The translations under genes were made by a program, and so were the position numbers. Shown piece after piece: positions 1,203 through 4,456 of a stretch of 64,000 bases of DNA. Origin of the DNA: Escherichia coli (GTDB lineage Bacteria > Pseudomonadota > Gammaproteobacteria > Enterobacterales > Enterobacteriaceae); assembly GCF_030013205.1 (NCBI RefSeq), contig NZ_CP122648.1; one strand, given 5' to 3'. Position 1 is the first letter of the stretch, and every line of letters starts with the position of its first letter. A model generated the notes under the pieces. It was not told the origin of the DNA, did no database searches, and saw nothing but the letters and a program-made list of their open reading frames with translations.

Positions 1203-2015
1203 ATGAAACTTTCACTCTCACCTCCCCCTTATGCTGATGCGCCCGTAGTGGTGTTGATTTCGGGTCTTGGCGGTAGCGGCAGTTACTGGTTACCGCAACT
1301 GGCGGTGCTGGAGCAGGAGTATCAGGTAATCTGTTACGACCAGCGCGGCACCGGCAATAATCCCGACACGCTGGCAGAAGATTACAGTATCACCCAGATG
1401 GCAGCGGAACTGCATCAGGCGCTGGTAGCCGCAGGGATTGAGCGTTACGCGGTGGTCGGCCATGCGCTCGGTGCGCTGGTGGGAATGCAGCTGGCGCTGG
1501 ATTATCCCGCGTCGGTAACTGTGCTGGTCAGCGTTAACGGCTGGCTACGAATAAACGCCCATACGCGCCGCTGTTTTCAGGTTCGCGAGCAGTTACTACA
1601 TAGCGGCGGCGCGCTGGCATGGGTGGAAGCTCAGCCATTGTTCCTCTATCCCGCCGACTGGATGGCGGCCCGCGCACCTCGCCTGGAAGCTGAAGACGCG
1701 CTGGCACTGGCGCATTTTCAGGGCAAAAATAATTTACTGCGTCGACTTAACGCCCTCAAACGCGCTGACTTTAGTCGCCATGCGGATCGCATCCGCTGCC
1801 CGGTGCAAATCATCTGCGCCAGTGATGATCTGCTGGTGCCATCAGCATGTTCCAGTGAACTTCATGCCGCCCTGCCCGATAGCCAGAAAATGGTGATGCG
1901 CTATGGCGGACACGCCTGCAACGTGACCGATCCCGAAACGTTTAATGCTTTGTTACTCAACGGGCTTGCCAGCCTGTTACATCACCGTGAAGCCGCCTGT
2001 AAGGAATTGCTATGA
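1203..2015 (+). CDS. rutD: RutD alpha/beta hydrolase
   Basis: [29 protein letters not shown]... with GHALG nucleophile elbow; ATG at 1203. Confidence 0.88.
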
Positions 2016-2602
2016 ACGAAGCCGTTAGCCCTGGTGCGCTTAGCACCCTGTTCACCGATGCCCGCACTCACAACGGCTGGCGGGAGACACCCGTCAGCGA
2101 TGAGATGTTACGGGAGATTTATGCCCTGATGAAATGGGGGCCGACATCAGCTAACTGTTCTCCGGCACGGATCGTGTTTATCCGCACTGCAGAAGGAAAA
2201 GAGCGTCTGCGCCCGGCGCTTTCCAGCGGCAATCTGCAAAAAACCCTGACTGCGCCCGTCACCGCGATCGTCGCCTAGGACAGTGAATTTTATGAACGGT
2301 TACCACAGCTGTTTCCTCACGGCGATGCCCGCAGTTGGTTTACCTCCAGCCCACAACTTGCCGAAGAAACAGCGTTTCGCAACAGTTCCATGCAGGCGGC
2401 CTATCTGATCGTCGCCTGCCGGGCGCTGGGACTGGATACCGGCCCGATGTCCGGCTTTGACCGTCAACACGTGGACGACGCTTTTTTTACGGGCAGCACG
2501 CTGAAGAGCAATCTGCTGATTAATATCGGCTATGGCGATAGCAGCAAGCTTTATGCGCGCCTGCCACGTCTGTCCTTTGAAGAAGCCTGCGGGCTGATGT
2601 AA
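2012..2602 (+). pseudogene. rutE: rutE (nitroreductase-family malonic semialdehyde reductase) interrupted by in-frame amber codon at 2276-2278
   Basis: Same frame before and after TAG; ...[21 protein letters not shown]...; codon is TGG (Trp) in recalled K-12 sequence. Confidence 0.8.
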
Positions 2603-2612
2603 GGAGCAAACT

Positions 2613-3107
2613 ATGAACATTGTCGATCAACAAACTTTTCGCGATGCGATGTCCTGCATGGGCGCGGCGGTCAATATTATCACCACGGACGGTCCAGCCG
2701 GTCGCGCCGGGTTCACCGCCAGCGCCGTCTGCAGCGTGACCGATACGCCGCCCACATTACTGGTGTGCCTGAATCGTGGGGCGTCCGTCTGGCCGGTATT
2801 CAATGAAAATCGAACGCTGTGTGTAAATACACTTAGCGCCGGGCAGGAGCCGCTTTCAAACCTTTTTGGCGGCAAAACGCCCATGGAACACCGCTTTGCC
2901 GCCGCCCGCTGGCAGACTGGTGTGACCGGATGCCCGCAACTGGAAGAGGCACTGGTTTCGTTTGACTGCCGTATCAGCGAGGTGGTGAGCGTCGGCACCC
3001 ACGACATTCTGTTTTGCGCCATCGAAGCGATTCATCGTCACGCCACCCCCTACGGGCTGGTGTGGTTTGATCGCAGTTATCACGCGCTGATGCGCCCTGC
3101 TTGTTAA
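2613..3107 (+). CDS. rutF: RutF flavin reductase
   Basis: 164 aa [40 protein letters not shown]... Confidence 0.9.
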
Positions 3108-3127
3108 CCTCCTTAAGGAGACAGCTG

Positions 3128-4456
3128 ATGGCAATGTTCGGTTTTCCTCACTGGCAGTTAAAATCGACCTCTACAGAGAGCGGCGTGGTCGCGCCGGATG
3201 AACGATTGCCGTTTGCTCAGACGGCAGTAATGGGCGTTCAACACGCGGTGGCGATGTTTGGCGCGACGGTGTTAATGCCTATTCTGATGGGGCTGGATCC
3301 CAATCTTTCCATTTTGATGTCGGGGATCGGCACGTTACTGTTTTTCTTTATTACCGGCGGGCGCGTCCCCAGTTATCTCGGCTCCAGCGCGGCTTTTGTC
3401 GGCGTGGTGATCGCCGCGACGGGCTTTAACGGTCAGGGCATTAACCCGAATATCAGCATTGCGCTGGGCGGGATTATCGCCTGTGGGCTGGTTTATACCG
3501 TCATTGGCCTGGTGGTGATGAAAATCGGTACGCGCTGGATTGAACGACTGATGCCGCCAGTGGTGACGGGTGCGGTGGTGATGGCGATTGGCCTGAACTT
3601 AGCGCCTATCGCAGTGAAAAGTGTATCGGCTTCGGCCTTTGATAGCTGGATGGCGGTAATGACGGTGCTGTGTATTGGGCTGGTAGCGGTGTTTACCCGT
3701 GGCATGATCCAGCGGTTATTGATTCTCGTAGGATTAATTGTCGCCTGTCTGCTGTATGGCGTGATGACCAACGTTTTAGGGCTGGGAAAAGCCGTCGATT
3801 TTACTCTCGTCAGCCATGCTGCCTAGTTCGGTTTGCCACATTTTTCCACTCCTGCTTTTAATGGTCAGGCAATGATGCTGATTGCGCCCGTGGCGGTGAT
3901 TCTGGTGGCGGAAAACTTAGGCCATCTCAAGGCGGTCGCCGGGATGACCGGACGCAATATGGATCCATATATGGGGCGGGCATTCGTGGGCGATGGGCTG
4001 GCGACGATGCTTTCCGGCTCTGTCGGCGGTAGCGGCGTGACCACCTATGCTGAAAATATCGGTGTAATGGCCGTGACAAAAGTCTACTCGACGCTGGTGT
4101 TTGTCGCTGCTGCCGTCATCGCTATGCTGTTGGGCTTTTCACCGAAATTTGGCGCGCTGATCCATACCATTCCGGCCGCGGTGATTGGTGGTGCATCAAT
4201 TGTAGTGTTCGGGCTGATTGCCGTCGCAGGCGCAAGGATCTGGGTACAAAACCGTGTCGATTTAAGCCAGAACGGTAATTTGATTATGGTCGCAGTAACC
4301 TTAGTGCTGGGCGCGGGTGATTTTGCTCTCACGCTGGGCGGTTTTACGTTGGGAGGGATCGGTACAGCAACCTTTGGCGCGATTTTACTCAATGCGTTAT
4401 TAAGCAGAAGGTTGATTGACGTTCCACCGCCAGAAGTGGTTCATCAGGAGCCATAA
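3128..4456 (+). pseudogene. rutG: rutG (NCS2 pyrimidine permease) interrupted by in-frame amber codon at 3824-3826
   Basis: MAMFGFPHWQLKST... continuous frame with single TAG between ...VSHAA and FGLPHFSTPAF; Trp expected here. Confidence 0.8.

Follow-up and report, generated by a model that had tools for sequence, protein, structure and literature searches.

Two amber stop codons at former Dcm sites in rutE and rutG of porcine edema-disease Escherichia coli O139:H1 ST1, and their likely origin by deamination of 5-methylcytosine

In both strands of CCWGG, Dcm methylates the inner cytosine, and the 5-methylcytosine (5mC) that results deaminates to thymine. The classic case is said to be that of the lacI amber hotspots at CCAGG, from the work of Coulondre, Miller and co-workers in 1978. 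Pseudogenes, for their part, accumulate in host-restricted or recently emerged clones such as Shigella and Salmonella Typhi. The T:G mismatches that arise from 5mC deamination in CCWGG are targeted by Vsr-mediated very-short-patch (VSP) repair according to two articles (PMC2715241; PMC3527292), the first of which lists the studies of Lieb 1991 and Macintyre 1999 on Dcm hotspots, and the inner cytosine of the motif is quoted, for natural assemblies of E. coli and Salmonella, as mutating ~8-fold faster than other cytosines (Cherry 2018, cited in PMC9520237). Here we describe a locus at which these themes meet. It lies in a stretch of 64,000 nucleotides of the E. coli contig NZ_CP122648.1 (assembly GCF_030013205.1), hereafter the window, in which rutE and rutG, two genes of the rut operon for the breakdown of uracil, each carry a single in-frame amber codon. 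The same pair of stops is found in porcine edema-disease E. coli O139:H1 of sequence type (ST) 1, a pathogen of pigs with a worldwide distribution to which we assign the window and which is referred to below as the clone, and the 17 complete genomes with both TAG codons are referred to as the clade genomes. We consider it likely that rutG and rutE were each knocked out in this clone by a spontaneous C>T change at a Dcm-methylated cytosine.

The rutE pseudogene (2012..2602, plus strand), for a malonic semialdehyde reductase, ends after residue 88 of 196, its open reading frame (ORF) running from 2012 to 2278. The rutG pseudogene (3128..4456, plus strand), for an NCS2-family uracil transporter, ends after residue 232 of 442 and is open to 3826. 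The TAG codons lie at 2276-2278 (codon 89 of 196) and 3824-3826 (codon 233 of 442) and both frames stay in register downstream, exactly as had been stated in an earlier reading of the letters made without database searches (the sequence-only reading). That reading had taken both codons for former tryptophan codons and had proposed two single G>A transitions of the same kind from TGG. Alignment bears this out, with TGG (Trp89 and Trp233) in three relatives, namely CFSAN018748 and the outgroups ST2747 and NY1601; G stands at 2277 and 3825 in the relatives, and A in the window. CFSAN018748, a Danish swine isolate, is 99.9% identical to the window over 2012-4456 and has both genes intact. Since G is found at both positions in all three relatives, both codons were ancestrally TGG and the changes are derived G>A substitutions. 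When compared with the intact CFSAN018748 copies, rutG of the window differs solely at 3825, and rutE at 2277 and at one synonymous site, 2203.

The feature overlooked in the sequence-only reading was the context that the two sites share. Both ancestral sites read GCC-TGG, and the mutated G is in each case the fourth base of CCTGG, a form of the Dcm motif CCWGG. The ancestral context in rutE is CGCCTGGGACA, in which 2277 lies opposite the methylated inner C of the bottom-strand CCAGG, and that in rutG is TGCCTGGTTCG, in which 3825 is the 5mC-paired position. The former Dcm sites at 2274..2278 and 3822..3826 now read CCTAG, so both have undergone, as polarised by the outgroups, a C>T change at the inner C, seen as G>A on the other strand. 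As deamination in CCTGG yields CTAGG/CCTAG, this shared context accounts for both stops being amber and identical in type. The 5mC positions make up 1.09% of core G:C positions, yet 2 of the 12 derived G:C>A:T changes on the lineage fell on them (P=0.007). There are 13 transition-nonsense targets in rutE and 21 in rutG. Because GCC precedes each of the two Trp codons, exactly one target per gene is a Dcm-amber target, and the chance of both stops landing on these sole targets is 0.0037. Throughout the core genes, deamination would create TAG at 69 of 246 Dcm 5mC positions (28%), whereas of all G:C>A:T changes 5.5% would be nonsense. The annotation of the clade genome W13-16 has intact dcm and vsr genes, of 1419 nt and 471 nt.

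Carriers of such mutations were sought in 5,426 complete E. coli genomes using 31-mers with each possible mutant allele, for which the 28-base megablast word seeds only in mutation carriers; the probes for non-Dcm nonsense changes were shuffled and strand-alternated and had no 22-mer in common with wild-type sequence. All four Dcm-amber targets of rutB-G were found mutated (besides the rutE and rutG sites, rutB W114 in 1 genome and rutB Q190 in 3), versus 6 of the 94 non-Dcm transition-nonsense targets, in 16 genomes (P=5.8e-5). As the two classes of target lie in the same operon and under one selective regime, this contrast speaks to the hotspot itself, which it demonstrates. The rutE TAG probe identified the 17 clade genomes and also GF60 (chicken meat, Switzerland), whose rut region is 98.6% identical to that of the window and has rutE W89* with rutG intact. 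Since GF60 has a different haplotype, with single-nucleotide polymorphisms (SNPs) flanking 2277 at distances of 26 bp (2251) and 19 bp (2296), its rutE W89* represents an independent recurrence. An exact 41-mer around the rutG stop was found in the 17 clade genomes only. Other recurrent nonsense alleles recorded elsewhere in the species include rutF W60 TGA in 9 human isolates, torS Q36 TAG in 5 mouse isolates, csgI Q93 TAG in 3 porcine enterotoxigenic E. coli (ETEC), and yccM W31 and W222 TAG in 5 genomes.

The second contrast drawn from these probes was between rut and the other core genes of the window, where 6 of 65 Dcm-amber targets were mutated as against the 4 of 4 in rut (P=2.4e-4); the six are located in agp (two sites), torS, yccM (two sites) and csgI. 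It indicates that rut is either unusually tolerant of knock-outs or selected for them. Were the latter the case, Rut loss would have been positively selected in a pig-adapted clone, with the Dcm hotspots merely supplying the mutations, and the possible reasons could include the avoidance of toxic Rut intermediates, a saving of cost or the conservation of pyrimidines. The contrast favours such selection, but it is explained equally well by the dispensability of rut. The operon is also widely kept: megablast of 2012-4456 matched it in 5,419 of the 5,426 genomes, and at a coverage of at least 80% in 5,417. As the assayed nonsense alleles occur in just ~38 genomes, Rut is generally retained.

The differences between the window and CFSAN018748 were polarised over 43.6 kb of shared core sequence, giving 16 derived substitutions on the window lineage, of which 12 are G:C>A:T transitions. 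Thirteen of the 16 fall in coding sequence, as 2 nonsense, 7 missense and 4 synonymous changes. With that spectrum and no purging 0.73 nonsense changes would be expected, and the probability of two or more is 0.16 for anywhere in this sequence and 0.0015 for rutB-G, the latter before allowing for the post-hoc choice of the operon. The stop-codon pair is genuine and beyond chance. Two nonsense changes together with the missense changes RutA D191N and RutC G10D on one short lineage are what selection for Rut loss might leave behind, as are the location of 6 of 8 polarised trunk substitutions within rutA-G (27% of a length of 20.5 kb, P=0.006) and the finding of a stop at both Dcm sites hit on the branch, although only 28% of Dcm positions would give one; the trunk substitutions within rutA-G are nevertheless 4 non-synonymous or nonsense to 2 synonymous, which is approximately the ratio of neutral decay. 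Selection against Rut function, one of the options of the sequence-only reading, is a possible though unlikely cause, and it is unnecessary as an explanation. We regard as rather improbable the wider proposal that Rut inactivation is adaptive in the clone and recurrent elsewhere, with Dcm-amber targets serving as preferred off-switches and the transporter silenced before the enzyme. The idea of a 'designed' contingency locus was rejected because rutB-G is poorer in Dcm-amber targets (4 in 4.35 kb) than the window core (69 in ~40 kb).

The alleles are well represented in the field. Only 18 of the megablast matches reached an identity of at least 99%, comprising 16 that were identical, 1 with a one-base difference, and CFSAN018748. 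The 17 TAG/TAG carriers are swine or wild-boar isolates from France, Japan, Korea and others, and include the O139:H1 genomes W13-16 and P15-25 (France), EC556/571/581, the 'ETEC' series and K_EC180 (Korea). They come from at least four projects, with PacBio assemblies among them, and further draft assemblies agree. RefSeq labels rutE and rutG of W13-16 and of K_EC180 pseudogenes, giving 'internal stop' as the reason. The genomes W13-16 and P15-25, sequenced by PacBio, belong to the ST1 edema-disease clone (PMC8798679); rut and pseudogenes receive no mention in that O139:H1 genome paper, and a literature search on rut loss or rutE/rutG pseudogenes in O139:H1 turned up no pertinent work. The sequence-only reading had also allowed for sequence error. 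That both stops are errors of sequencing or assembly was a prior possibility only, and its probability is now negligible, because the same bases occur in 17 complete genomes from separate projects; the draft assemblies carry them too, and the changes are substitutions and not homopolymer indels.

Nor is there support for a mutagenised or suppressor-bearing laboratory lineage, which the sequence-only reading had offered as a further explanation. Its appeal lay in two amber stops that both stem from G>A, a change typical of alkylating mutagens, with the possibility that the genes are still expressed through an amber-suppressor tRNA. The carriers, however, were isolated in the field from boar and pigs of several countries and were sequenced by different groups; the alleles are fixed in all 17, and the amber specificity already follows from Dcm chemistry. 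The suggested excess of G:C>A:T transitions was not significant (12 of 16 changes on this branch and 4 of 10 on its sister, P=0.11), with merely 16 substitutions in 43.6 kb. As to suppression, the sole tRNA-Gln(CUG) gene of W13-16 has a normal CTG anticodon, which argues against a supE-type suppressor. A CUA (CTA) anticodon was found neither in the W13-16 tRNA-Gln cluster (one CTG, two TTG) nor in the window, the Tyr, Ser, Leu, Lys and Trp loci being outside this check, and the only tRNA of the window is a normal tRNA-Ser(UGA) (anticodon TGA, 31976-32063). A suppressor or laboratory origin is accordingly exceedingly improbable. The single tRNA-Gln(CUG) gene of W13-16 lies in the metT-leuW-glnUW-metU-glnV cluster at chromosome positions 4755058-4755649, where K-12 presumably has two such genes, glnV and glnX.

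At the protein level, the intact CFSAN018748 homologs and the truncated products were compared with NCBIfam equivalog models that have curated cut-offs. Intact RutE scores 323 bits against NF003768 (cut-off 152) and the 88-aa fragment 135 bits; intact RutG scores 849 bits against TIGR03616 (cut-off 759) and the 232-aa fragment 445 bits, so that both fragments fall under the cut-off. The RutG fragment matches the NCS2 profile only in its first half, at positions 1-232 of 429. The window encodes neither RutE nor RutG at full length and would accordingly have no functional Rut operon; the shortened proteins (88 of 196 residues for RutE, 232 of 442 for RutG) are predicted to lack function. The possibility that RutG works in two pieces, the second restarted from a TTG at 3833 (a 207-aa C-terminal ORF), was also considered; no evident Shine-Dalgarno sequence precedes it, and this is very unlikely. 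In K-12, uracil is imported by RutG, and malonate semialdehyde is reduced by RutE (or YdfG), as given in PMC8113886. The clone would thus be predicted to be unable to draw nitrogen from exogenous uracil or uridine by way of Rut.

The remainder of the operon is open. Of rutA only the 3' end lies in the window (1..105, plus strand), and the full gene is intact in the clade genomes with a derived D191N (codon 191, upstream of the window). The frames of rutB (105-797), rutC (809-1195, with the lineage-specific missense change G10D, codon 10, at 837) and rutD (1203-2015) are open, and rutF (2613-3107) is intact and flanked by the two pseudogenes, all of these on the plus strand. The gene order rutR/rutA-G was found in the annotation of W13-16, the Rut operon being rutABCDEFG with a divergent rutR.

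To place the two losses in sequence, related draft genomes were reached by means of an exact-protein look-up of the clade RutF, which was found in 366 blocks of the contig collection, and their states were compared over 20.5 kb. CFSAN018748 is ancestral throughout, with TGG at both rutG 3825 and rutE 2277. GCA_964041575.1 has RutA D191N, RutC G10D (837A) and 5956A, with TGG in both genes. The draft GCA_012969905.1 has the same three changes (RutA D191N, RutC G10D at 837, and 5956) with TAG in rutG and TGG in rutE, and the clade has these together with changes at 973, 2203 and 4719 and TAG in both genes. The four states form a nested series with zero conflict. As both genes are intact in GCA_964041575.1 and GCA_012969905.1 has the rutG stop only, rutG was probably lost first and rutE later. 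RutA D191N and RutC G10D, which are common to relatives with intact rutE and rutG, predate both stops. Later changes in sub-lineages, RutF Y147C in K_EC180 and RutG L56Q in two assemblies, fit ongoing decay of the operon. One of the clade-specific substitutions, the C>T at 4719, lies 7 nt upstream of the start of ymdF (minus strand), where it changes a Shine-Dalgarno GGAGG to GGAGA and creates a GATC.

The order of loss also bears on whether one knock-out was a response to the other. Rut intermediates are reportedly toxic, a finding attributed to Kim et al. in 2010, and given the roles of RutE and RutG in K-12, rutE could have been lost first, malonic semialdehyde toxicity following, and loss of the uracil importer RutG then selected as compensation. 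The probable rutG-first order counts against this, GCA_012969905.1 having rutG TAG with rutE TGG and no genome on this haplotype having rutE TAG alone. GF60, in which rutE* occurs with an intact rutG, indicates that loss of rutE alone is viable. Compensation is consequently a very doubtful explanation.

Deamination at the two Dcm sites, our preferred explanation, would have proceeded as follows. Dcm would methylate the inner C of CCTGG at rutE codon 89 and rutG codon 233, deamination of the 5mC to thymine would leave a T:G mismatch, and a mismatch that evaded Vsr very-short-patch repair would turn CCTGG into CCTAG, the TGG of the motif being the Trp codon that becomes amber. In a lineage already bearing RutA D191N and RutC G10D, rutG would have been hit first and rutE afterwards, and the losses, presumably neutral, would have been tolerated and fixed in the clone. 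Two known processes, deamination hotspots at Dcm sites and the decay of a dispensable catabolic operon, jointly explain the case.

A number of points weigh against this account. Two Dcm-amber hits in one operon among the 69 targets of the window have a probability of 0.07, or 0.0026 for rut specifically. Even given a hotspot, two hits among 4 targets on a short branch are unlikely if purely neutral, and selection or hitch-hiking may contribute. In addition, the clustering of trunk substitutions in rutA-G exceeds the comfortable reach of relaxed constraint alone. Methylation in vivo of the sites at rutE codon 89 and rutG codon 233 is presumed from the motif, and the suppression check covered the glnV type only. 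The order of events hangs on one draft, GCA_012969905.1, which 3825 is the sole site to join to the clade, and its rutG stop could formally be an independent recurrence at the hotspot. The clade-specific substitutions 973, 2203, 2277 and 4719, finally, all fall within 3.7 kb of the 20.5 kb (scan P=0.02). Because of this clustering a small recombined patch is possible, on which rutE* was perhaps imported; the rutE stop, and possibly the rutG stop too, would then have arrived by short homologous recombination from a close relative. No donor-like haplotype was found in the 5,426 complete genomes, where the best match from beyond the lineage has an identity of 98.7%, and GF60 is ancestral at 973, 2203 and 4719. 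We consider such an import improbable, and it would alter the site of origin of the mutation and not its mechanism.

Elsewhere in the window, the statement of the sequence-only reading that every other core gene is intact proved incorrect. The gene yccE (7501-8761, minus strand) has a +1 frameshift close to its 5' end, in a T-run of 8 at 8665-8672 as compared with 7 in W13-16, CFSAN018748 and the outgroups. The additional T is also present in assembly GCA_030346235.1, and GCA_964041575.1 has a separate yccE +A frameshift near window position 8297. The change in the window could be genuine or a homopolymer sequencing error. At the 3' end of torS (19276), a 1-bp deletion relative to NY1601 changes the last TorS residues; it is shared by CFSAN018748, whose torS is labelled 'frameshifted' in RefSeq. 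There are also lineage-specific TorS missense changes at 17619 and 19032. At ~21770, the cspH/appA junction is without the gfcA-gfcE-etp-etk group-4 capsule cluster that NY1601 has there, and this cluster is missing in CFSAN018748 and ST2747 too. A degraded lambdoid prophage of ~20.3 kb (32104-52434) is located at serT, adjoining the tRNA-Ser(UGA) gene at 31976-32063, and contains an integrase, Q antiterminator, RusA, a DNA methyltransferase, a RelE/ParD pair and truncated tail genes. W13-16 has this prophage as well, whereas CFSAN018748, ST2747 and NY1601 lack it.

The paired ambers are thus no marker of a suppressor strain, of mutagenesis or of bad sequence. They are a clean natural example of a textbook mechanism and represent no new biological system. 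The pseudogene marks were already known from RefSeq, and what is added here is modest, namely the attribution to a hotspot, the data on recurrence and the rutG-then-rutE order. More generally, Dcm methylation predisposes certain Trp (NCC-TGG) and Gln (C-CAG-G) codons to become amber, and in this way shapes which genes a clone loses and by what route. For O139:H1 ST1, the stops supply two clone-specific SNP markers and a predicted phenotype marker, in that growth through Rut on uracil or uridine would be absent at room temperature. The 31-mer allele probes can be reused for separating hotspot effects from selection in other operons.

When compared with described systems, the locus resembles the K-12 laboratory rut mutants in that the same genes are affected (Loh 2006, Kim 2010; Buckner et al. 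2021, PMC8113886), whereas the alleles described here are natural, belong to a wild clone and are known from sequence. As in the decay seen in Shigella and Typhi, a catabolic pathway of a clonal pathogen has probably been lost by point mutation and further rut decay has followed (RutF Y147C, RutG L56Q); unlike those cases, only this region is covered here and most neighbouring core genes are intact. The 4 of 4 versus 6 of 94 for rutB-G agrees in direction with the methylation-induced hypermutation of Cherry 2018, as relayed by PMC9520237 and PMC10710837; as described there, that work consists of genome-wide statistics, while the rut case is a specific knock-out pair with an inferred order. A further likeness is with the lacI hotspots. 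In both, transition of the inner C of CCWGG gives a CTAGG/CCTAG amber, recurs at one and the same site in independent lineages and does so with vsr present. The rut case differs in that the genomes are natural, the mutated base lies on the TGG (bottom-strand) side of the motif, the event occurred twice in an operon of one clone, and the evidence is read from sequence.

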